A stretch of DNA of 64,000 nt, taken from an uncultured Verrucomicrobiae bacterium (GTDB lineage Bacteria > Verrucomicrobiota > Verrucomicrobiia > Limisphaerales > UBA11358). Shown piece by piece: positions 20,175 to 61,933 of this stretch. The notes beneath the pieces were generated by a model. The model saw only the letters and a program-made list of their open reading frames with translations, had not been told where the DNA came from and did not search any database. How positions within the stretch are numbered: position 1 is the stretch's first letter; each line of letters starts with the position of its first letter. The DNA lies in the NCBI GenBank assembly GCA_963714695.1, contig CAVQPQ010000008.1, positions 180,656-244,655 of the forward strand, given 5' to 3'. The translations under genes were made by a program, and so were the position numbers.

Positions 20175-21299
20175 TCAATTGAGAATCACTCTGGCAGCCC
20201 GGGCCAAGGCTTCCGCTTCCGCCGCTGTGCCAATCGTGATTCGCAGATAATTTCTCACCTCCGGTTGATTGAACCAGCGTACCAGGATTTTGCGGGCGCG
20301 CAGCTTTTGCAGCCATTCTTCCGCCGAAAATCGCGGCGGCTGGACAAGAATGAAATTCGTCTGGCTGGGTAAAACCCGGAAACCGAGTTTCGTCAACTCG
20401 CGACTTAATTCATCTCGCGTGGCGATGATCCTTTTGAAATTCGCCCGGTAATACGGCAGGTCGTCCAGCGCGGCTTCGGCGGCAATCTGGCCGAGGCCGT
20501 TCACGTTGTAACTGTCCCGAATCTTGTGCAGCGCGCCGATGAGTTCCGAGGGACCGACGAAATAGCCGACGCGCTGGAAGCACAGCGAATACGCCTTCGA
20601 GAAAGTTCGCGCCGCGAGCACGCGCGGATATTTCAGCGCCAGAGCCATCGCGTTCTCCTCCGCGAAATCCACATACGCTTCATCGAGCACGACGACGCCC
20701 TTGTGAGCGCGGCAGAGTTCGTCCAGTTCTTTGGTCGAGTAGCCGCGACCGCTCGGCGCATTCGGCGTGGTGACGAATGTCAAGGCCGCGCGAAAATCCC
20801 AAACCTTGCCGAGTTTCAATTCGCGCAGGGCCGGCAGGCTGAAATCCGGGTTGAGCGGCAGGGCGTTTTTCACCGCGCCATGGATGTCCGCCAGCACCGG
20901 ATACAGCGAGTAGCTCGGCGTGAAGTATTGGACCAACGACCTTGGACTTTGGACTTTGGACTTTAGACCCGGCTCGGCGAAGCCGCGCACCGCCAGCGCC
21001 AGCAATTCATCCGAGCCGTTGCCCGCGATGACATTCTCCGGCTGGCAGCCATGCAACTTCGCCAGTTTTTCCCGCAACCGCTCCGCCGTCGGGTTCGGAT
21101 ACAGCCGCAACCGCCCGTCCACCGCCGCCTTGACCGCCGCCAGCACCTTCGGTGACGGCGGATACGGATTCTCGTTGGTGTTGAGTTTGATCAACCCTTT
21201 GATCTTCGGCTGCTCGCCATAGACGTAAGGGTGCAACTCCCGCACGAGCGGACGGATTAGCGATTGCGGATTGCGGATTGCGGATTGCGAATTAGGCAT
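20175..21299 (-). CDS. hisC: histidinol-phosphate aminotransferase
   Basis: Class-II aminotransferase. LNTNENPYPPSP and the PLP-lysine context RTFSKAYSL. The N-terminus (MPNSQSAIRNPQSAIRNPQS) is encoded by tandem heptamers, so the true start is uncertain. Confidence 0.9.
   Translation of the reverse strand: MPNSQSAIRNPQSLIRPLVRELHPYVYGEQPKIKGLIKLNTNENPYPPSPKVLAAVKAAVDGRLRLYPNPTAERLREKLAKLHGCQPENVIAGNGSDELLALAVRGFAEPGLKSKVQSPRSLVQYFTPSYSLYPVLADIHGAVKNALPLNPDFSLPALRELKLGKVWDFRAALTFVTTPNAPSGRGYSTKELDELCRAHKGVVVLDEAYVDFAEENAMALALKYPRVLAARTFSKAYSLCFQRVGYFVGPSELIGALHKIRDSYNVNGLGQIAAEAALDDLPYYRANFKRIIATRDELSRELTKLGFRVLPSQTNFILVQPPRFSAEEWLQKLRARKILVRWFNQPEVRNYLRITIGTAAEAEALARAARVILN
20929..20970. 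repeat. six degenerate heptads (TGGACTT type) inside hisC
   Basis: TGGACCA ACGACCT TGGACTT TGGACTT TGGACTT TAGACCC. Encodes LKSKVQSPRS on the hisC strand. Confidence 0.8.
21255..21296. repeat. tandem heptamer GATTGCG x4-6 at the hisC 5-prime end
   Basis: GATTAGC GATTGCG GATTGCG GATTGCG GATTGCG AATTAGG. Confidence 0.9.
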
Positions 21300-50022: not shown

Positions 50023-53000
50023 ATGAAAAGAACCGCAATCGTATTATTGGCCATCTCGCTATTCAATTCAGCCGCGCCGGGCAAGCCGGTTTCCCCGCCG
50101 GCCAATGACCTCGCCATCCGCGCAATCCATTACAACGGCAAACTCGCGGACGACGAGGCACGGTTCACGCTGGATATCGCCGCCGAAGCCACCGGCGCGG
50201 GCGAAAGTTCGGCAAAATTATTGGAGGGCGACGTTGCCATCCTGCCCGGAAACCTGCCCGACCAGTTGAAGATTATCCGCGAAAGCAACCGCTACCTGCT
50301 CGTCGCGTCGCATCCGGGACAGTTCAAATTCAAACTGGAGGTCGTCGCCAAAATCCAGCACGCCGAACCGTGGAACCAGATTTCATTCACAGGCCCGGCG
50401 GCGACGATTGCCTCCGTCACCGCGCAGGCAGCCGGCGCGGACACGGAAGTCCAGTTGCTCAATGGCACGTTGCTCGACGCCATCAAAACCAACGGCATCT
50501 CTCGCTTGATGGGATTTCTCGGCGCGGACCAGACGGTTGCGTTGCGCTGGCAAAGCCGGGTTACCAAGATTGCGCACAAATCCCTGCTCACGGCGGATTC
50601 CGCCATCGCCGCGCAAATCACGCCGACCGTCATTAAATACACCAGCAAGTTTCATTACGAAATCGTCCAGGGCAACGCCGCACAGCTCACGCTCGCGCTG
50701 CCCGCGTCGCAATCGCTCACGCGGCTGGAAGGCGAACAGATTCGCGACTGGCACACGACGGTGGAAAGCGACCGCCAGACGCTGACCATTGAATTCATCA
50801 AGCCGGTGGAAAATGCCTGCGACCTCACGCTGTATTCCGAACAGACCGTGGATGGCGCTGCGGAAAAAATTTCGCTGAACCCGCCGCAGCCGTTGAACGT
50901 CGAGCGCGAATCCGGTTCGCTCACCATCTCCGCCGAGGACACGCTGGTTGAAACTGCCGCGCTGGCCGGGCTGCGACAGGTCAATGCGACGGGCAATGCG
51001 CTGGCGTCGTATCAATTCAACGCCCGGCTGTTCACGCTCGCGCTCAAACTCAAACCCATCGAACCGGTCATCGGCGTCACCGACCGCGTCAGCACGCGGC
51101 TCGAAGAAACGCGGCTGGTGATTTCGCACCGCCTCGCGCTGAACATTGAGAAGGCTGGCATTTACACGCTGGAACTGGCGCCCCAACCCGGATTCGCCAT
51201 CGCGGACGTGCGCGGCGAGGGCGTGGACGACTGGAATTTCAGCAACGGAAAAATTCTCGTGGATTTTTCCGCGCGCCTGCTCGGTTCGCGGCGGCTGGAC
51301 GTGCAGTTGGAACAAGCCCTCAAGAATTTTCCCGAACAAATCAGCATTGGGCCGTTGCGCGTGTCCGGCGCGGTTAGGGAAACGGCGCAAATCGGCGCGG
51401 CCTCCGCGCCCGGCATCCGCCTGCACACCGCGGCACTCTCCGGCCTGCGCGAAATTCCAGTGCGAACGCTTCAGAGTGGGACGGGCTTCCAGCCTGTCTC
51501 CTACTCAAATCAAAATGAAACAGGCTGGAAGCCTGTTCCACTCTCCGACGAAATTCTCGCCTACACCACCGAGCAGCCGGATTGGAAACTGTTCGTCGCC
51601 AGCGAACGCCTCGCCGCGCGTGTCGTGGCCGATGTATTCAACCTCGTGACCATCGGCGACGGCCTGGTCGGTGGCAGCGCGACGATCCGTTACGGTCTCG
51701 TCAATCAGGGCGTGCAGGAATTCAAGGTCCGGGTTCCGGCGAATTACAAAAACGTCGAATTCACCGGCCCGAACATCCGGCGCAAAGAATTGAGTCGAGG
51801 GTCGAAGGTCGAGAGTCGAGAGCCGGGCAACGCCCTCGACACTCGACACTCGACACTCGACACGAATTACGACGTTTGGACCATTGGTCTCCAGAGACAA
51901 GGTCTGGGGCGGCTATACGCTCGTTGTCACCTACGATTTTCAATTTGATGCCAAGGGCGCAACGCTGCCCATCGGCGGTGTTCATGCGGTTGACGTGGAG
52001 CGCGAGACCGGCTCGGTCGCCATCACGACCGCCGCGAGCTTGCAGCTCAGTGCAAAATCCGCGAGCGACACGCTGCGGCGCGTGGACGAGTCCGAGTTGT
52101 CCGCCACCGACCGCTCGCTCATCGCGCGCGCCGTCGTGCTGGCGTATCAATACACCGGCGACCAGTACGATTTGTCCGTGGACGTGAAACGATACGCGGA
52201 GGAACGCGTGCTCGAAGCCGTCGCCGACCGCACGCAAATCACGTCCGTCCTTACCGAAGGCGGCGAAATGCTCACGCAGGCGTCGTTCATGGTGAAGAAC
52301 AACGAGAAACAATTTCAACGCTTCCAACTGCCGACCGATGCGAAACTCTGGGGCTGCTACGTCAACGGCCAGCCCGCCAAGCCGGAACGCGACGGTGACT
52401 GGGTGCTGGTCTCGCTCCCGCGCGACGTGAACCGCAACCAGACATTTGCCGTGGACATCATGTATGCCCAGACGAACGGCGCGCTCGCGTCCACGTGGTC
52501 GAAAACGCTCGACCTCAAAGCCCCCCGCACCGACGTGCCCAACACTTATGCGGAATGGCAAATCTTCGTGCCGCCCACGCTGCGGCTTTCCGATTTTGGC
52601 GGCAGCATGAAGGTGACGCAGGGCACTACTTACGAATTGTTCGACGCCTGGGAAAAATTCCTCACCTTCTACGGGCAGGTTTTGCATGAAGCCGGCGGGG
52701 CGATTCTGGTCATCGGCTTTCTGGCGTTTCTCGTCATCGCCCTGGTGGTATCGGCGGCGCGGCGCGGCTGGAGCGGCGTTCTCACTCTGCTCGCGGTCAT
52801 GGCCATTCTCTTCGTGCTGGGCGCGATGCTGCTGCCGGCGCTCGCCAGCGCCAAACGCAAGGCGCAACGCACCAGTTCGGTCAACAATCTCAAGCAGATC
52901 GGCGTTGCGGTGCGGCTTTTTGCCGGCGACAACGGCGACCGACTGCCGCTTTCGTTTGAAGAAATGAAAAACGAACTGGGCACGGACAAAATCACCTACG

Positions 53001-56000
53001 ACACCGAAACCGGACTGCGTTACACCTATCTCGGTGGTGGAATGCCGATGGACAGCCTCAAGCCGGAATCCGTGCTCGCCTACAGCCCGATTGTCAACGG
53101 CCACTGCGAAGTGCTCTTCGCCGACGGCAGCGTGGAGCAGATGACCGACGGAAAATTCGCAGAACTTTCCCAGCGCGGCCTGGTGCAATTGGCCACGCCA
53201 CAGGAAATCGCTGTGCAGCAGCAGCGGGCGGCCATTGCGAGCAGCCAGTTTGCCAATCAACCAAACGCCGCGCCGGCAGCTCCACTGACGGGTGAATTTG
53301 CCATCAACGGCACGGCAGGTACGCACGGTCTTGGTGAATCTGGCAGTGGTGGTGGCAGCGTCGCTGTCGCCGGAATTCCTGCCGCGCCGTCCGTTGTCCC
53401 GGCGCCCACCGCCGCCGGCATCCGTTCCATCCGCATCGAACTGCCGCAGACCGGCCAGCCGTTCATGTTCACCAAAGTGCTCAATGTCCGTGACGAGCCG
53501 CTTTCGATTCGGGCGCGCATCATGCCGCTGCACACTTTTCAAACCATTCAAATGGCGTGGCAGAGCGTGGCATTTGTGCTCGGGCTCATCATCTGGTGGT
53601 GGCAATGGCGGCGCGCCCAGCGCAACACTTTCATTCTCACTGCCGCGCTGGCGTTAATCCTCGGCTCGGTGTGCAGCCTGCTCATTCAGTGGCGCGCGCT
53701 GCATGACGCGCTCATTGTCAGCTTCCCGTCCGTGACTGTCGCCGTCATCGCCTGGCTCGTTTGGAAATATTGGCCGCGTGGAAGCAAGCCGGCGACCGAA
53801 TCGCCTACGCCAGCGATGGGAATCCCGCCGGTCATGGCCTCAATCGCCCTGCTGTTCGCGTTGAGTTTGTCCACAGCGACCGCCGCAAATACCGAAATCG
53901 GCAATCGGCAATCAGCAATCGGCAATGTCTCGATTGTTTCCGCCAGCTATTCCGGCCCGGTGAATGACCATGTGGCTTCAATTGATGCGACGCTGCAATT
54001 TTCCGCCGTCAGCCCCGGCCAGATTGTCCCGCTGTTCGGCGATGATGTGGTCGTTCAGCACTTCACGGCCAAAACCGGGCGCGCCGAGCTCGTCCGCGAC
54101 GGCGGTAACATCGCCGTGCGGTTCGACAGTCGCGGCAACGTGACGCTGCAAATCAAAATGCTGGTCAAAATCACCGGCGACGTGACGAAACGCCGGCTCG
54201 CGTTTGCGATACCGCCGGCGTTGTCGAGCCAGGTGGCGCTCGCACTTGACGAATCCGAGGCGGACGTGGATTTTTCGGCGGCGATTTCGTTCCGGCGGAT
54301 TTTGGACCAGGACAAGACGCGCGTGGAAGCCGTGATGGGTTCGGCCGATCATGTCGAATTGCTCTGGACGCCGCGGGTGAAACGCGCCGCTGAAGTGGCG
54401 GCCACGGTGTTTTGCCAGAACGCGGCGCTCGTCACGTTCGGCGGCGGCGTGGTGAACGTGCGCGCGACGATGGATTATCAAATCACGCAGGGCGAGCTGC
54501 GCCAGGCGCGGGTGCGGTTGCCCGCTGGACAAAAATTGCTGCGCGTCGAAGGAAAGGAAATCCGTACCTGGGAGGTAATGCCTGGGAGCGCCGCTGTCTC
54601 AGCGGCGAGTTCTTCGGGAAAAACATCGCAACCCGCCGGGGGGACGCCGGCGCTCCCAGGAGAGCAGATTCTCGTCGTGGATTTGCTGAAAGGAATTCCG
54701 CTCAACTGGCGGCTGACGATTGAAACGGAAAAAGTTTTGGATGTGCTGCCGGCGGACATGGTGGTCGAAACGCCGCATGCGCTCGACGTGAAACGCGAAA
54801 ATGGCCTGGTCGCCCTGCGCGGAGCGGAGGAACTGGCCTTGTCGGTTGGGTCCGCGTCCGGCCTGGAGCGCGTGGACGCGGAGGAATACGGGCGCACGGT
54901 CGCGGACCAGACCGGCAATCTCTCCAGCGTGTTCCGGTTTTCCAATCCCGAATTTACGCTGCGTATCCGCGCCGGGTCCATCCAGCCGGAAATCGAAGCC
55001 GTCGTGCGGAACAATTTCCGCGTGAGCGCCGAGCAGGTGTCGCTTTCGGCAATGGTTGATTACACGATCAAACGCGCGGGCGTGTTTACGCTGAAGGTTG
55101 CGCTGCCCGGCGGTTATCACGTCGAGCGCGTAAGCGGAAATAACATTTTGCAGCAGGCTGAACACAGCGATGGGAATGCGCGCCTTCTCGAAGTGACGCT
55201 GAAAGAGCGCACGAGCGGCGCCTACACTTTGACCATTGAACTGACGCGCGATTTCAAGGAATTGCCGAAGTCGCTCGACATTGCCGGCGTGCATCCGCTC
55301 GACACGGCGAAGCTCACGGGCTTTGTCGCCGTTTCCGCCGAGCCGGGGGTAGCGGTGAAAACCGAATCTTTCGACGGCCTCACGGAAATACCGGCGGTGT
55401 CGCTGCCGGATTACGCAACGGTGGCCGGAACGGGCAGCGTGCTGGCTTACAAATTCATTTCCTCCGCGCCGAAGTCCGCACCGGAATGGAAATTGAGCGT
55501 GGCGACTGAAAATGTCGCCGCCTGGGTGCGCGCGGAAATTGTCAACACGTTCACACTTACCGAAACGCTGGTGAGCGGGCGCGCGCTGGTGCGTTACGAC
55601 ATCGCCAACGCGCCGGTGAAGGAGTTGCGCGTGCGCGTCCCGGCGGAATTCAAGAATGTCGAGATCACCGGCGCGAACATCCGCAGCCGCAACCAGTCGG
55701 GCGATGTCTGGCGCATGGAATTACAGAACCCGACGCGCGGATTTTACACCCTGACCATAACGTGGGACGAGCCGCGCGCGGAAAAAACCCGCGCGCTGGA
55801 ACTCACGGGAATTTCCGCCGATGGCGTGGAGCGCGAAACCGGCCTGCTGGCGATCTCGGCCAAGGCGCCGTTGCAGGTGAGCGAATCAGGCGCGGTGGAT
55901 TTGCAGCGCGTGGACGCGGGTGATTTTCCCGATTGGGGGGAAAGCCCGGACAACGCGATGGCGCTCGCGTATCGCTACGTGCGGCCGGGATACCAGCTCA

Positions 56001-57088
56001 CGCTTGACGTGCGGCGGTTTGACGAGGCGGAAGTGTTGCAGGCGCTGGTGGACAGCGCACGATTCACCAGCGTGGTGGCCGACGACGGCCAGATGATGAC
56101 CGAGATGTCGCTCTCCGTGCGCAACAACGGCCGGCAGTTTCTCGAAATCGCCCTGCCCGCCGGCGCGCGCGTCTGGTCGGCTTTCGTCGCGGACCAGCCG
56201 GTGCGGCCCAGCATACGCGACGGCAAATTGCTGTTACCCATCGAATCGTCCGGCGCGGACGACGGCGCGATATCGGTGGAATTGACCTACGTCGGCACGA
56301 ATTCGTTTCCGCGCGACCGGGGAAGCCTCGGCTTCGCTTCGCCGAAATTTGACGTGCCGTTGAAGAACGCGCGCTGGGACGTTTATCTGCCGCCGGATTA
56401 CGACTATCAAAATTTTTCCGGCACGATGACACGCGAAACCGCGTCCGCGCCGGAAACCTGGTCGTCGAGTTTTTCGAGTCTCGATTATTCGCTCATGGAG
56501 CAGGCCAAGAAGGCGTCGGCCAAGGTCGAGGTTGACCGGGACGTGAGCGAGGCGCGGCGGCAGCTCGCCGGCGGCAACATGCGCGAGGCCAGCGCCACCT
56601 TCAACCGCGCCAAGACCCGACTTTACGCCGACAAAAAGGAGGACGGCGACGTGCAACAGCTCGAAAAGGATTTGCAGACCGCGCAGGCGAGCAATCTCAT
56701 CAACGCGCAAAATGATTTCGTTACCCGGAACGCGGGCGAAATCGCAGCGGATGGAAAATTTCCCGCCTCGCAAGTCCAGCCGTCCGGCGGGCCAAATGAC
56801 AACGCCGCCGCCGGACAGCAATGGATGAAATTGCAGCAGGCGCAGGAAATTGTAACCGCCAAGGTGCAGCCGCTGCGCGTGAATTTGCCGGTGCGCGGCC
56901 TGCATTTTGCCTTCACCCAGGTCCTGCAAACCGAAAGCGGCCGGCCGATGACAATCCAGCTCTTCACCGCCAGCACCAAGGCCGTGAGCTGGCCGATGCG
57001 CGGTCTGACTGCGATCGGCGCATTTTTGATGCTGTGGGCATTGGTCGCCATTTTATCCCGCCTGACGTTGCGCGCCAATCGGGCATGA
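50023..57088 (+). CDS. giant internally duplicated envelope protein (ORFs 50023..51948 + 51884..57088, joined across a 1-nt frameshift near 51901)
   Basis: Signal peptide MKRTAIVLLAISLFNSAAPG. Module A (~900 aa) and module B (~960 aa) align along their length, e.g. VRVPANYKNVEFTGPNIR / VRVPAEFKNVEITGANIR and VDVERETGSVAITTAASLQLS / DGVERETGLLAISAKAPLQVS. TM segments and a pseudopilin-like linker lie between the modules. No family name recognised. Confidence 0.65.
51484..51533. repeat. perfect 14-bp inverted repeat inside module A coding sequence
   Basis: GGCTTCCAGCCTGT (51484-51497) and ACAGGCTGGAAGCC (51520-51533). Encodes GFQPVSYSNQNETGWKPV, which is absent from the aligned position in module B. 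Confidence 0.85.
51792..51863. repeat. hairpin of tandem heptamers inside coding sequence
   Basis: (GTCGAGN)x4 arm 51792-51822, 12-nt loop, (CTCGACA)x4 arm 51835-51863. Encodes SRGSKVESREPGNALDTRHSTLDT, absent from module B. Confidence 0.85.
53896..53926. repeat. tandem heptamer AATCGGC x4 inside coding sequence
   Basis: AATCGGC AATCGGC AATCAGC AATCGGC. Encodes EIGNRQSAIGN directly after the internal signal-peptide-like segment. Confidence 0.85.
54581..54660. repeat. perfect 13-bp inverted repeat (nested hairpin) inside module B coding sequence
   Basis: CCTGGGAGCGCCG (54581-54593) and CGGCGCTCCCAGG (54648-54660), with inner hairpin GCCGCTGTCTCAGCGGC. Encodes PGSAAVSAASSSGKTSQPAGGTPALPG, absent from module A. 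Confidence 0.85.
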
Positions 57089-57200: not shown

Positions 57201-58142
57201 ATGATACCGACTCCTCTTGAAGCCGCGCGGGAAACCTGCCGGAAAATCGCGGACAACATCGCCAAAATCATGCACGGCCAGGCCGGCCCGACGCGCGAGC
57301 TGCTCGCCAGCGGCGGCCATGTGTTGCTGGATGATTATCCCGGCACGGGCAAGACGACGCTGGCCAAGGCGCTCGCCCGCTCGATTGAGGCGCAGTTCAA
57401 GCGCATCCAGTTCACGCCCGATTTGCTGCCGTCGGACATCCTCGGCGTGTCGGTGTTCAGCCAGCGTGACCAGCAGTTCCATTTTCACGAAGGCCCGGTG
57501 TTCACCAACATTTTGCTCGCCGACGAAATCAACCGCGCCTCGCCGCGCACGCAATCGGCGCTGCTCGAAGCGATGGGCGAGGCGCAGGTGAGCGTCGAGG
57601 GCGAACGGCGGAATCTTTCGGAATTGTTTTTTGTCATCGCCACGCAAAACCCCGTCGAGTTTCGCGGCACGTATCCGCTGCCCGAGGCGCAGATGGACCG
57701 GTTTGCCATGCAATTCACACTCGGCTACGTCCAGCCCGAGGAGGAAGTGGCCATCCTCACGGCGCAGCAACACAACCATCCGCTCGACGAATTGAAGCCC
57801 GTCGCCACGCTCGCGGACGTGATCGCGCTCAAGCATGCGGTGGAAGATGTGCGCATCAGCGATGAATTGAAACGGTACGCCGTTGACCTGGCGGCGGCGA
57901 CACGCACGGCGGGCGGCGTCCAACTGGGCGCCAGTCCGCGCGCATCCATCGCACTGATGAAAACCGCGCAGGCGCTGGCCTTGTTTGACGGCGCGGATTT
58001 TGTCACGCCGGAACAGATTCAGTCGCTCGCCGTGCCGGTCATCGCCCACCGGCTGGTGCTGGAGCCGCAGGCGCGTTTTTCGGGCGTGACGGCGCGCGGC
58101 GTGGTCGAGGAAGCCGTCAAAAAATTGCGCGTGCCGGCGTGA
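57201..58142 (+). CDS. MoxR-family AAA+ ATPase
   Basis: Walker A DDYPGTGKTTLAKALA, Walker B ILLADEINRASP, and the characteristic C-terminal lid (RASIALMKTAQALALFDGADFVTPEQI). Confidence 0.9.
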   Translation: MIPTPLEAARETCRKIADNIAKIMHGQAGPTRELLASGGHVLLDDYPGTGKTTLAKALARSIEAQFKRIQFTPDLLPSDILGVSVFSQRDQQFHFHEGPVFTNILLADEINRASPRTQSALLEAMGEAQVSVEGERRNLSELFFVIATQNPVEFRGTYPLPEAQMDRFAMQFTLGYVQPEEEVAILTAQQHNHPLDELKPVATLADVIALKHAVEDVRISDELKRYAVDLAAATRTAGGVQLGASPRASIALMKTAQALALFDGADFVTPEQIQSLAVPVIAHRLVLEPQARFSGVTARGVVEEAVKKLRVPA

Positions 58143-58159
58143 CAGAAAAGGCGGAAAGC

Positions 58160-58447
58160 AGAATGAAGAACGAAGAAACAAAATTCTGCAAAGCGTCGAA
58201 GGCAAGATCTGTTTTGATTCCTCGACTTGTTCAACGGAATAAGTGTTTACGCCCGCCCTCACCTTTTATCCTCTCCCCCAGGAGAGGAAATCGCTTTCGC
58301 TGGTTTCTGGTTTTGCGGATGTGCGTCCGGCCAATCCCGTCGTGTAAATTTTCAAAGAAGCGGCGAACGATTCTCCCTCTCCCGGGGGTGAGGGCCGGGG
58401 GGAGGACGGATGTCATCCTTCCATCCCTGTTTTTTCAATCTTCATTC
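58160..58447. repeat. nested palindromic intergenic element between the MoxR and DUF58 genes
   Basis: Outer arms GAATGAAGAACGAAGAAACA (58161-58180) and TGTTTTTTCAATCTTCATTC (58428-58447), 17/20 complementary. Inner arms CCCGCCCTCACC (58252-58263) and GGTGAGGGCCGG (58387-58398). Local 8-bp hairpin TCCTCTCC-CCCA-GGAGAGGA (58269-58288). Confidence 0.75.
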
Positions 58448-58452
58448 ACCTC

Positions 58453-59796
58453 GTGACCCTGATCTACCAGCTGATTTACTGGATTTACCGCGTCACGAGC
58501 GGCCTGTGGTACTGGTCGCGCCGGCGGTTCACGCTGGCGGGCCTGTGCGTGGCCGGGAGCTTCATCGTCGCCGGCGCGGTGGGCGTGGACGTTGAGAATA
58601 CCGTCACCTATCAATCGTTCTCGCTGTTGCTGGCGTTTCTGCTGCTGGCCCTGGCAGGCAGCCTTTTCTTCCGCGCCACCTTTTCCGCAACGCGCATATT
58701 GCCGCGCATCGGCACGGCCGGACAGCCGCTGCACTATCGCGTGCAGGTGAAAAATCTGACGGCGAAAAACCAGACGGGCCTGACCCTGCTGGAAGAACTC
58801 GCCGACCCGCGTCCGGCGTTTCAGGAATGGCTGGCATTTCAACTGGCTGAAAGCAAACGCGTTCGCCCCTTCCGCGTGACGCAACGACGGCGGGAGAGTC
58901 CGTTCCGCCGGGTGAAGGTGAAGGAGGCGGAGGTTCCGCCGCTGCCGGCCCACGGCAGGGCCGAAGCGCGCGTGGAAATGCTTCCGCTGCGCCGGGGAAT
59001 CCTGCGGTTCACCGGCATGACGCTGGCGCGGCCCGATCCGCTGGGATTGTTCCGCTCGTTCAGCCGGGTGGCCGCGCCGCAGACGGTTTTGATTTTGCCG
59101 AAGCGTTATCCTCTTCCGCCCATCGCGCTGCCGGGGGCGATGCGTTATCAGGAAGGCGGCGTGGCGCTCGCGGCGAACGTCGGACGCAGCGAGGAGTTCG
59201 TCGCGCTGCGCGATTATCGTCACGGGGATCCGTTGCGGCACATCCACTGGCGGAGCTGGGCGAAGACCGGCAAACCGATCGTGAAGGAATTCGAGGACGA
59301 ATTTTTTGTGCGGCACGCGCTAGTACTGGACACGTTCGACGACGAACCGAACAGCGAGGTTTTAGAGGAAGCCGTGTCCATCGCGGCGTCGTTCGCCTGC
59401 ACGGTGCTGACGCAGGAATCGCTGCTGGACCTGCTGTTCGTCGGCAACCGGTCCTACTGCTTCACCGCCGGCCGCGGACTGGCGGAGGCGGACCAGATGC
59501 TGGAAATTCTGGCTTCGGTGCGGAACTGCGCCGACAAGACATTTGAGACGCTCGAACATCTCGTGCTCAATCACATTGCCGTCGTGAGCGGCTGCATTTG
59601 CGTGCTGCAACGCTGGGACGGGGCGCGACAGGAGTTTGTGAAAAAATTGCGCGTTCTCGACATTCCGCTGCTCGTGCTGGTCGTGGTGCGTCCGGAGGAA
59701 AAGAAACCGGACGCCGGGCAATTGCGCGACGAGCCGGGAACTTTCCACGTCCTCGAAATCGGCCGTATCGAGGAAGAACTGTCGAAACTCAAGTGA
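58453..59796 (+). CDS. DUF58-family protein (vWA-like fold, MoxR partner)
   Basis: Two N-terminal TM segments. The DUF58 signature ALRDYRHGDPLRHIHWRSWAKTGKPIVKEFEDE. Confidence 0.85.
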   Translation: MTLIYQLIYWIYRVTSGLWYWSRRRFTLAGLCVAGSFIVAGAVGVDVENTVTYQSFSLLLAFLLLALAGSLFFRATFSATRILPRIGTAGQPLHYRVQVKNLTAKNQTGLTLLEELADPRPAFQEWLAFQLAESKRVRPFRVTQRRRESPFRRVKVKEAEVPPLPAHGRAEARVEMLPLRRGILRFTGMTLARPDPLGLFRSFSRVAAPQTVLILPKRYPLPPIALPGAMRYQEGGVALAANVGRSEEFVALRDYRHGDPLRHIHWRSWAKTGKPIVKEFEDEFFVRHALVLDTFDDEPNSEVLEEAVSIAASFACTVLTQESLLDLLFVGNRSYCFTAGRGLAEADQMLEILASVRNCADKTFETLEHLVLNHIAVVSGCICVLQRWDGARQEFVKKLRVLDIPLLVLVVVRPEEKKPDAGQLRDEPGTFHVLEIGRIEEELSKLK

Positions 59797-59812
59797 AGAC
59801 GGAACCCCATTT

Positions 59813-61933
59813 ATGAAACCGCCGCCCTTTCTACTTTTGGCCGCGCTGCTTTTCTGGGGCTGGCAATCGGGGCTGCTGCTTTACGGCGCCATCATGGGCC
59901 TGGTGCTGGAAAGCTCGCGGTTCATCAAGGCGCGCTGGGATTTGACCGGGGAGGATTTTCGCCGCCTCTGGAATTTTAGCACGCTGCTGGCGCTGACGCT
60001 GGTGGTCTATGTTTTCACCACGAACGAGGAGGGCGGCGGATTGAACAGCCTGCTTCATGTTTCAGCCGTCGTGGCCGCGCGCAACGCCGGCGTTTCCGCC
60101 ACCACGTTTTTGCGCTGGCTGCCGATGACGATGTTCCTGTTTGTCGCGGCGCAGAGGTTTAGCGAACGCGGATCCGTTCCGTTGTCGGCGATTTCATTGT
60201 TAATGCGCCTGCGCCGGAAAGGGGGCTCCGAAGCGGAACGAAATGTGGACGTCTCGTATGCGTATTTCATCGTGTGTTTGTTTTCCGCTGGCATCCACAC
60301 CAATGCCGGGACCCACTCTTATTTTTGGGGACAAGCGGTTCTGATCGCATGGGCGTTGTGGCCGCTGCGTTCGCGGCGCTTCGGCCTCATCGTCTGGGTT
60401 GGCGCGCTGGCGGCGGCGATCGGGCTGGGCTTTTCCGGCCAGCACGGCATCGGCGAGTTGCAGCGGGCGCTCGAAGGTTACAACGCGCAGTGGATGATGA
60501 ATTTGATGCGGCAGCGGACAGACGCCTCCCAAGCCATGACGGCCATCGGCCGGATCGGAAAATTAAAATTGTCCGCGCGGATCGTCATCCGGCTCGAACC
60601 CAAAGGCGGCAGCACGCCGCCGGTTTACCTGCGCGAGGCCAGTTACCGCGGTTACCATCCGCAGAGACGAACGTGGCAGATGGGCGGCTCGCAGAACAAT
60701 TTCGCCAACCTGGTGCACGATGCGGGCGATGGCTCTTCCTGGACGCTGCTGCCCGGCAAAACCAACACATCGGTCGTCAATATCGCGTCTTACCTTGAAG
60801 GCCGCTCGCAGGATACGGGCGACCCGGAAGGACTGCTTCCACTGCCAACCGGCAGCAGCCGTCTGGAAAATCTTCCGGTGTTCCCGCTGAAAATGAACAA
60901 AACCGGCGCGGTCCTGGCCGATGGTCTGGGTCTGGTGATTTTCGATGCGCACTACGGACCCGGCGCGACGTTTGATTCGCCGCCGGATGCCGGCACGAAC
61001 CATCTGGATTTGACCGTGCCAGCCGACGAAGTTCCGGCGCTGGACCAAATCATTTCTGAAATGAAAATATCCGGCGCGACTGAAGAACGGAAGCGTGTCG
61101 CCGTCCAGCAATTTTTCGCGGCCAATTTCATTTACAGCACCTGGCTGGGACCGGACAAGGTGGCGCGCACCAACGAGACGGCGCTGTCACGTTTTCTTTT
61201 GCACAGCCGCAGCGGCCATTGCGAATACTTTGCCACGGCGACGGTATTGCTGCTCCGCGAACTCGGAATTCCCGCGCGTTACGCCGTGGGTTATGCCGTT
61301 CACGAACCCGCCGGTCACGGCTACGTCGTGCGCGAACATGACGCCCATGCGTGGTGTCTCGTTTGGAATGAGGCGAAGCAAATGTGGGAGGACTTCGACA
61401 CCACGCCGGCATCCTGGGTCGCGAAGGACACCAAAAGCGCATCGGCCTTGCAGTGGTTTTCGGATTTCTGGTCGTGGGTCAGATTTCAAATCGCGAAATT
61501 CCGCTGGGGACAGGCCAATTTGCGTCAATATATCCTCTGGGCGCTGATCCCCGTGCTGGCGTTGCTGCTGTATCAAATCATCTTCCGGCACGGACGCAGA
61601 CGCCGGCCACAAGCCAAAACCGGAAAATCCGCCAGCGCGATTTTCTGGCCGGGGCTGGACTCCGAATTCTACCTGCTTGAACGCAAACTGGCCGCGCGCG
61701 GCGTGCCGCGCCAGCCCAGCGAACCGCTTTCCGGCTGGCTGGCGCGCGCGCTGGCCAACCCGGGCCTGGCCGATTTGCGGCAGCCGTTGCAGGAATTGTT
61801 GCGGCTGCATTACTGCCATCGTTTTGACCCGCGCGGCTTAAGCGGCGAGGAGCGGGAGACGCTGACCCGGGAAGCAAAAATCTGTCTGGACATGCTGTCA
61901 CGGGTGGAGCAACACTCCGCAAGCCCGGCTTGA
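59813..61933 (+). CDS. transglutaminase-domain membrane protein (TgpA-like)
   Basis: N-terminal polytopic domain. Transglutaminase core RSGHCEYFATATVLLLRELGIPARYAVGY...HAWCLVW...WEDFDTTP (Cys-His-Asp). Then a TM segment and a C-terminal DUF4129-like tail. Confidence 0.85.
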   Translation: MKPPPFLLLAALLFWGWQSGLLLYGAIMGLVLESSRFIKARWDLTGEDFRRLWNFSTLLALTLVVYVFTTNEEGGGLNSLLHVSAVVAARNAGVSATTFLRWLPMTMFLFVAAQRFSERGSVPLSAISLLMRLRRKGGSEAERNVDVSYAYFIVCLFSAGIHTNAGTHSYFWGQAVLIAWALWPLRSRRFGLIVWVGALAAAIGLGFSGQHGIGELQRALEGYNAQWMMNLMRQRTDASQAMTAIGRIGKLKLSARIVIRLEPKGGSTPPVYLREASYRGYHPQRRTWQMGGSQNNFANLVHDAGDGSSWTLLPGKTNTSVVNIASYLEGRSQDTGDPEGLLPLPTGSSRLENLPVFPLKMNKTGAVLADGLGLVIFDAHYGPGATFDSPPDAGTNHLDLTVPADEVPALDQIISEMKISGATEERKRVAVQQFFAANFIYSTWLGPDKVARTNETALSRFLLHSRSGHCEYFATATVLLLRELGIPARYAVGYAVHEPAGHGYVVREHDAHAWCLVWNEAKQMWEDFDTTPASWVAKDTKSASALQWFSDFWSWVRFQIAKFRWGQANLRQYILWALIPVLALLLYQIIFRHGRRRRPQAKTGKSASAIFWPGLDSEFYLLERKLAARGVPRQPSEPLSGWLARALANPGLADLRQPLQELLRLHYCHRFDPRGLSGEERETLTREAKICLDMLSRVEQHSASPA

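Follow-up and report, generated by a model that had tools for sequence, protein, structure and literature searches.

Heptanucleotide tandem repeats were reportedly described in cyanobacteria, as short tandemly repeated repetitive (STRR) sequences, by Mazel et al. in 1990, and long simple-sequence repeats (SSRs) in bacteria are said to have been described by Mrazek et al. in 2007. The four-helix-bundle proteins of the PF05635 family, named after the 23S rRNA intervening sequence, are homologs of Avd, the accessory protein of diversity-generating retroelements, and are known to form pentamers. An excess of heptameric repeats has been noted (PMC4692102). Coxiella's intervening sequence (IVS) has a 28-bp terminal stem with tandem heptamers (GACAGAT) that vary in number between strains, carries an S23p open reading frame (ORF) in its loop, and is excised by RNase III; the S23p protein of Xanthomonas is a pentamer of four-helix bundles (PMC4990558). 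Rickettsia palindromic elements (RPEs), as far as the summary of Ogata et al. (2000/2002) in PMC10969869 describes them, are about 150 bp long, comprise about ten sequence families, each with a conserved peptide, and occur in Rickettsia only. Here we analysed a hairpin with heptamer arms in a 64,000-nt stretch (hereafter the window) of contig CAVQPQ010000008.1 from an uncultured Verrucomicrobiae bacterium, where it is read in frame as part of a large protein-coding gene. We think it probable (about 0.68) that this hairpin belongs, as a gene-less copy, to GTCGAGN heptamer-armed hairpins, a family whose full-size form is a cassette with a PF05635 gene, and that it is a selfish or neutral passenger in a permissive protein loop.

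The hairpin consists of four GTCGAGN units opposite four CTCGACA units, with 6 of 7 positions complementary per unit. An earlier note on this locus, made from the letters alone, had described these arms correctly, as the sequence and the folds bear out, and had given the loop as 12 nt; it is 13 nt long (Table 1). In both the RNA and the DNA folds, the six core bases of each unit were paired and the seventh base formed a 1x1 mismatch that recurred every 7 bp. The RNA fold had an energy of -42.9 kcal/mol, compared with -27.0 ± 3.2 kcal/mol for dinucleotide-shuffled sequences (z = -4.9), 0 of 200 of which folded as well, and the DNA fold gave z = -5.1. Translated in the frame of the upstream ORF (50023-51948), the 72 nt encode SRGSKVESREPGNALDTRHSTLDT, placed after ...GPNIRRKEL and before NYDVW, and the loop plus the preceding GA is read E-P-G-N-A. 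The right arm ends flush at a GACAC (D-T) that is common to nearly all long-loop orthologs. The paralogous site in the second module of the gene, module B, is uninterrupted and reads GANIRSRNQSGDVW; on both the 24 added residues and the uninterrupted paralog, the earlier note proved accurate. An intrinsic terminator was rejected as an identity for the hairpin, the stem having no trailing T-run.

We cut out the DNA between the anchors ...TGPNIR and WGGYTL... in 50 orthologs of the genus and order (G000 denotes the genome holding the window, other G numbers related genomes). The site ranged from 51 to 155 nt, and 19 of the 50 orthologs had a 51-nt baseline (e.g., RKE-QTG-DVW) without any of the 24 extra residues, which identifies the block as an insertion. 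Distant orthologs were likewise found to lack these residues. The G000 site measured 124 nt, that is, 51 + 72 + an extra A, and the gain of 72 nt keeps the local frame. Full GTCGAG hairpins were also present in the same slot of two distant lineages, G628 (+75 nt) and G421 (+78 nt), so that hairpins of this type occur at the slot in three lineages, whereas G450, the sister of G628, had a 72-nt loop without arrays. Every insert at the slot ended flush with the host GACAC (the D-T of a conserved DTN). An unrelated palindrome (GGAGGGA..GAGTCCC..GGGACTC..TCCCTCC) was found in the slot of G516 and G004. The insert of G516 is 81 nt long and in frame, and its homolog in G004 (L008, G004:C27, 1409-1527, minus strand) is 104 nt long and out of frame, with the gene split there.

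Shorter inserts were found in members of the G000 clade of the ortholog tree. G021 had +30 nt (AGTCGGG-AGCCGGACAATGCTGG-CGACAC, one unit per arm), G015 +18 nt (AGTCGGGAGTCCGACTCC), G584 +18 nt, and G032 +21 nt (GTCGGGA...CGAACAC). The G000 site exceeds that of G021 by exactly 42 nt, or 3 units per arm, and the two loops are homologous (GAGCCGGGCAACGCC vs GAGCCGGACAATGCTGG). These sites raise an alternative in which the hairpin grew in situ, a short loop palindrome (AGTCGGG...CGACAC, as in G021, G015, and G032) having slipped out to 4+4 heptamers in the G000 lineage. The one-unit arms around a homologous loop in the same slot of these three genomes, the exact three-unit gap, and the four identical CTCGACA units, whose seventh base A, uncommon among family members, fits the host GACAC, are all as such growth would leave them. 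However, the arms of G000 carry the family consensus GTCGAG and those of the relatives GTCGGG, the GTCGAG unit recurs in 33 arrays of G000 and in the hairpins at the same site in G628 and G421, and neither the genome-wide excess of period 7 nor the sharing of units across genomes (see below) would be expected from slippage at arbitrary local sequence. We therefore regard in-situ growth as rather unlikely; it would be compatible with the passenger interpretation as a second phase, an expansion of the arms after arrival. The earlier note had proposed the insertion of a palindromic element. The insertion in frame holds, but the element may not have come as a single 72-nt block, as relatives have 18- and 30-nt versions in which a homologous loop lies between arms of one unit. 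Each arm either gained 3 units (21 nt) in G000 or shrank in the relatives; since the ortholog tree comprised only 150 columns and its nodes near G000 were weakly supported, a gain followed by loss is inseparable from two gains.

No target-site duplication was found at the slot, the net gain relative to the empty sites being exactly 72 nt. The flanking GAATT was considered as a duplication and rejected because it conflicts with the net gain and with the empty sites. This bears on the proposal that the hairpin is a classical miniature inverted-repeat transposable element (MITE) or RPE, that is, a non-autonomous insertion-sequence derivative moved in trans by a transposase recognising the arms. 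Inverted terminal arms, small size, dispersal, and RPE-like in-frame insertions would all suit such an element, but besides the missing duplication its loops should not differ as they do here, and the sole gene found inside full-size copies was PF05635 rather than a transposase gene, with no systematic search for transposases made. Furthermore, the arms are tandem simple repeats, of which one genome holds dozens of different units, beyond the recognition of one transposase. We consider this proposal highly improbable.

The location of the insert in the protein was assessed with an AlphaFold (AF2) model of the G628 ortholog, which carries a GTCGAG hairpin at the same site (43 sequences; pLDDT 88, pTM 0.82). 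In this model, the insert comprises residues 61-85, between strands 54-60 and 86-110, and is the sole low-confidence stretch (pLDDT < 50). A disordered insert between two adjacent strands corresponds to a surface beta-hairpin turn of a beta-sandwich domain, and the modelled insert thus occupies a disordered surface loop, as the earlier note had anticipated. It might be asked whether the hairpin is kept for its structure, either in the mRNA as a site of RNase III cleavage or other processing, of pausing, or of attenuation, or in the protein as a selected flexible linker. By analogy, the 28-bp interrupted stem recalls those that RNase III cuts, IVS stems among them, its evenly spaced 1x1 mismatches might modulate cleavage, and the hairpin type recurs at the slot in three lineages. 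Nevertheless, most orthologs do without a hairpin and have the slot filled by unrelated sequence of 0-104 extra nt, similar hairpins lie in unrelated housekeeping genes and between genes, and the peptide is predicted to be disordered. The hairpin matched no Rfam family, the search giving only a sub-threshold chance match (P8, 21.7 bits; cut-off 60). A retained function of this kind is very unlikely.

The hairpin in the window is one of many in its genome (5.16 Mb, 9 contigs, 57% G+C). Three consecutive GTCGAGN units occurred 33 times in G000 and the reversed control 0 times, showing that the unit of the hairpin is not due to chance. Besides single arms, G000 has about 16 GTCGAG hairpins with paired arms, each arm comprising 2-4 units and the loops measuring 14-59 nt. 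A genome-wide search had been suggested in the earlier note, and 14 of these 16 paired hairpins turned out to be read through in frame by long ORFs. Ten lie in one loop of paralogous membrane proteins with C-terminal TPR repeats, and the others read in frame are in UvrA, PdxJ, a DinG-type helicase, and the gene in the window. The other two are at gene ends within ABC-transporter operons. A lone GTCGAG arm lies in frame in PheT. In five of the TPR-paralog copies (C1:138692, C3:284162, C6:694960, C6:699515, and C8:152986), the GTCGAG hairpin, 69 nt long, is the same in every base, as are 50 nt or more of its flanks, which points to recent duplication or conversion of the genes rather than to separate insertions.

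The GTCGAG unit belongs to a larger vocabulary of heptamers. A detector of tandem arrays with at least 3 units recorded 233 arrays of period 7 in G000, compared with 5 of period 8 and 7 of period 9. About 83 distinct heptamer units were represented, the commonest being AATCCGC, AACCCTC, AACATCC, and ACCCTCG (= GTCGAGG). An open frame of at least 80 codons extended on each side of 121 of 235 arrays, and the encoded peptides include SAIRNPQ, KSEIRNP, TSNIQHP, and PSTLNPQ. A bias of the array units towards stop-free sequence was weak: among random heptamers, 60% lack a stop on either strand, and array units that carry stops on both are only mildly depleted.

Full-size members of the family contain a gene. 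At C6:106887-107381 of G000, GTCGAG arms enclose a 440-nt loop that encodes a PF05635 protein at 106953-107306 (111.8 bits). Twelve of the 13 PF05635 genes in this genome are enclosed by short tandem repeats arranged as inverted arrays, every one having a unit of its own (GTCGAG, GGTTGAG, GCGGATT, AACATTC, GGTGACA, GAAACGT, GAAGTGA, GATTAAG, and others). For 10 of the 13 PF05635 genes, the automated detector located an array no more than 200 nt away, compared with 3% of random loci, and each of the four commonest array units in G000 has a PF05635 cassette. In G345, a protein 86% identical to the GTCGAG-armed PF05635 protein is syntenic with it and also has GTCGAG arms. Across the order, clades of the four-helix-bundle proteins track the arm type, in a tree that has long, poorly placed branches; one clade with CTCAAC-type arms occurs in at least three genomic contexts, and another has GTCCAAA-type arms. 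Two side observations concern these cassettes. The GTCGAG-armed PF05635 cassette of G000 lies in an oligopeptide-type ABC operon (C6:105453-108806, L140) with a gene-less GTCGAG hairpin at the next gene junction, an arrangement kept in G345 (L141). In L153 (G040:C78, 581-2927), a PF05635 gene is surrounded by (GGCGAAT)n / (ATTCGCC)n arrays that exceed 2 kb, where 4-5 units are usual.

The family is patchy among relatives and extends to other phyla. GTCGAG arms were found in 17 of 61 relatives, with 0 for the control. When 185,579 species genomes were scanned, exact GTCGAG hairpins of 3+3 units were obtained in 111 stretches, from Verrucomicrobiota (many labelled Limisphaerales), Acidobacteriota (Pyrinomonadaceae), Gemmatimonadota, Planctomycetota, Chloroflexota, and others; among the holders is a cultured member of the Gemmatimonadota, Roseisolibacter sp. 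H3M3-2. Of these stretches, 80 loci were examined for open frames, and 51 of these other-species loci lie in frames with at least 60 codons on each side. GTCGAG-armed PF05635 genes were present in four distant genomes (two Pyrinomonadaceae, Acidobacteria SZAS-13, and Roseisolibacter), which also carry gene-less GTCGAG hairpins.

Compared with the systems introduced above, the closest relatives by design are the heptamer-stemmed PF05635/IVS cassettes. Like the ORF-bearing 23S rRNA IVSs of Coxiella burnetii, Leptospira, and others, the hairpin has arms of 4 x 7 = 28 nt that are paired at 6 of 7 positions and stem heptamers of variable copy number (1+1 in G021, 4+4 in G000), and full-size copies of its family hold a PF05635/S23p gene in the loop (12 such cassettes in G000, one of them GTCGAG-armed). 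Unlike those IVSs, the copy in the window has no gene, has a 13-nt loop, and is translated within a protein-coding gene rather than lying in rRNA. The resemblance to RPEs put forward in the earlier note holds in part. As with RPEs, these are small dispersed palindromes that lie mostly in frame in unrelated protein genes (14 of 16 here, 51 of 80 elsewhere) and are translated at permissive places. However, the element in the window is 72 nt long rather than about 100-150, a distinction drawn from the descriptions of RPEs and not from sequence comparison. Its arms are tandem heptamers, the peptide is a cyclic reading of the unit, and the loop is variable, with no conserved element-encoded peptide. 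Furthermore, the GTCGAG family crosses phyla (Verrucomicrobiota, Acidobacteriota, Gemmatimonadota, and Planctomycetota) and is not confined to Rickettsia (Alphaproteobacteria), and its larger relatives carry a PF05635 gene. The element thus behaves in an RPE-like manner but is not an RPE.

Three other repeat classes were also compared. The genome-wide excess of short (3-5 unit) heptamer arrays with many different units recalls STRRs and long SSRs, but those are described as mainly intergenic, whereas here 121 of 235 arrays lie in open frames, many pair as arms, and the arrays are tied to PF05635 cassettes. Intragenic MITEs (ERIC, Correia, and BOX; PMC10969869) are likewise small inverted-repeat elements that now and then become fused in frame to a host ORF, but they have a conserved interior, target-site duplications, and transposase-bearing relatives, none of which was found for the GTCGAG family, for which no systematic transposase search was made. 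Repetitive extragenic palindromic (REP) sequences and REPINs, which go with a RAYT (IS200/IS605-like) transposase gene, are extragenic, in contrast to the intragenic location of 14 of the 16 paired GTCGAG copies. Full-text literature searches returned nothing on heptamer-armed hairpins in Verrucomicrobia and nothing tying PF05635 to dispersed heptamer repeats.

A loop of UvrA is a second place at which such sequences accumulate. In G000, a GTCGAG hairpin lies in this gene at C5:362552-362626. The site was compared across 40 relatives and recovered in 37 genomes including G000 (G000 plus loci L100-L139). Between LRWGEG and PPTPKHFSFN, three genomes had a 105-nt baseline (ALHQEPQTKSETWIETLHS) and the other 34 had 108-246 nt. 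Many of the longer loops are differing arrays or hairpins, often with two unrelated arrays adjoining: (GTCCAAA)n alone or followed by (AATCCGC)n, (AATCGGC)n, (CCGTCAC)n, or (CCCTCAA)n; (AGTCAGC)n/(ACTGACY)n hairpins; (ACGGACT)n; and GC-rich palindromes. The GTCGAG hairpin is present in G000 and G018. As different arrays and hairpins occupy the same loop in different genomes, the arrays therefore act as modules that are gained, swapped, and lost at permissive loops. The unit vocabulary common to many genomes favours copying from existing arrays over slippage from arbitrary local seeds.

These results are consistent with the following course of events. The full-size form would be a PF05635 gene within two inverted arrays of about four 7-nt units each, giving a stem of about 28 bp, and the gene-less hairpins may descend from or depend on such cassettes. 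At the slot in the window, a beta-turn that tolerates almost any length would allow the hairpin to be read through as a disordered loop of 24 residues. Persistence in coding sequence is explained by three properties: GTCGAGN and its complement are stop-free in every phase, the net length divides evenly by 3, and the site accepts inserts. The arms would then change in 7-nt steps by slipped-strand mispairing, as supported by the differences of 3 units per arm and by the four identical units of the right arm. Within genes, only changes summing to a multiple of 3 would be expected to last (e.g., 3 units, or 21 nt, per arm), and others would break the gene. A benefit to the host is most likely nil, which would make the hairpin selfish or neutral DNA. 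The arms may have been laid down around resident sequence, perhaps primed by microhomology between the host CGACAC and the unit CTCGACA.

It should be noted that several observations fit the passenger interpretation poorly. The loops of different GTCGAG copies are mostly unrelated, with only short inner-stem motifs (GCC...CCGGC) recurring, a misfit with simple copy-and-paste of a master element. The loop in the window matches those of armless orthologs (G530, GAGCCGGCGCCGAACGCC-GACACC) and of G021, so the arms may have been added around host sequence and not brought in with the loop; the history would be either that of an old hairpin decaying in most lineages or that of arms added at resident sequence. 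Across phyla, GTCGAG-armed PF05635 proteins are 35-44% identical to each other and 43-49% identical to other-armed proteins, so that a shared arm type brings no greater similarity and there is no sign of a simple protein-to-repeat code. G004 has 9 GTCGAG arms and no close four-helix-bundle homolog in a bin that is 72% complete. Finally, the host gene is frameshifted in G000, so the copy analysed here may belong to a gene in decay.

That frameshift was unnoticed in the earlier note, and the host gene is not intact. An extra A splits the gene into two ORFs, ending ORF1 at its stop and continuing the reading in the +1 frame; it lies 32 nt past the hairpin and is separate from it. All 10 of the 10 aligned orthologs read ...CAG GAC AAG GT. 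TGG GG... at this point, compared with CAG A GAC AAG in the window, and the host-gene orthologs in related genomes are undivided ORFs of 2300-2630 aa. The extra A could be an assembly error or a real, recent mutation. Two metagenome scans, with patterns allowing either allele, gave no second copy of the stretch around 51895, and an exact-protein look-up gave no record of this host protein. Programmed frameshifting was rejected, because the shift is an exact 1-nt insertion relative to 10 orthologs, has no slippery site or stop, and has the hairpin upstream of it. One might suppose, from the split gene and from the out-of-frame 104-nt palindrome that splits the gene at the same site in G004, that repeats build up here because the gene is dead in this genome. 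This we find scarcely plausible, as both ORFs are otherwise open over 2370 codons at 64-74% identity to the closest intact orthologs, comparable in-frame hairpins lie in the intact orthologs of G628 and G421 and in UvrA and PdxJ (with a single arm in PheT), and the lone extra base could itself be an assembly error.

Table 1 Features of the hairpin and its host gene in the window (positions are those of the window).
Feature	Position	Strand	Remark
In-frame insertion of 24 codons, SRGSKVESREPGNALDTRHSTLDT	51792..51863	+	Net +72 nt relative to the 51-nt baseline of 19 orthologs, with the 1-nt frameshift subtracted
Left arm, GTCGAGG GTCGAAG GTCGAGA GTCGAGA (4 x 7 nt)	51794..51821	+	
Loop GCCGGGCAACGCC, 13 nt	51822..51834	+	Homologous to the G021 loop GAGCCGGACAATGCTGG and the armless G530 loop GAGCCGGCGCCGAACGCC
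Right arm, (CTCGACA)x4, all units identical	51835..51862	+	
Paralogous site in module B, insert-free, GANIRSRNQSGDVW	55670..55711	+	
ORF1, N-terminal 641 aa of the host gene (module A), cut by the frameshift	50023..51948	+	
ORF2, +1 frame: rest of module A, transmembrane segments with a prepilin-like segment, module B	51884..57088	+	1734 codons
Extra A (CAG-A-GAC), +1 frameshift private to this genome	51895	+	From the alignment of 11 orthologous sites
Second heptamer array in the host gene, single-armed (AATCGGC)x3.5, read EIGNRQSAIGN	53896..53920	+	In frame, right behind the hydrophobic segment preceding module B

As for the means of propagation, we tentatively propose that PF05635 proteins are the recognition or propagation factor of a repeat class without transposase, each acting on its own 4-5-fold heptamer array and seeding gene-less arms and hairpins at new sites, including permissive loops. 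The proposal is possible but doubtful. If it were true, rRNA intervening sequences, STRR-like heptamer repeats, and in-frame RPE-like hairpins would be one system, from which a major part of the variation in protein-loop length would stem, as in UvrA and the gene in the window across one genus. The family would be a second, phylogenetically wide case of the RPE phenomenon, with a simpler anatomy and a concrete candidate partner gene. The beta-turn of the envelope protein and the UvrA loop are landing pads at which arrays and hairpins replace each other between species of one genus; this turnover explains much of the loop-length variation in the two proteins, and steps that are out of frame can break genes. 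The large PF05635 family and the long-unexplained heptamer repeats of bacteria thereby gain a testable shared context. In addition, the low-complexity peptides encoded by hairpins and arrays (VESRESR, PSTLDSR, SAIRNPQ) can mislead the annotation and alignment of predicted proteomes.

The host protein itself belongs to no recognised family in a Pfam search, and a fold search with the modelled domain gave only generic beta-sandwich matches (the N-terminal domain of aminopeptidase N and an oligosaccharyltransferase (OST) subunit). Downstream of the host gene, 57201-61933 encodes a MoxR-type AAA_3 ATPase, a DUF58 protein, and a transglutaminase-like/DUF4129 protein, forming an envelope operon of the Bat/MoxR type, a system of which the giant beta-sandwich protein with its two modules is probably a part. 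Two further heptamer arrays were found elsewhere in the window, (GACTTTG)x4 at 20938-20968 and (GCGGATT)x4 at 21261-21293.

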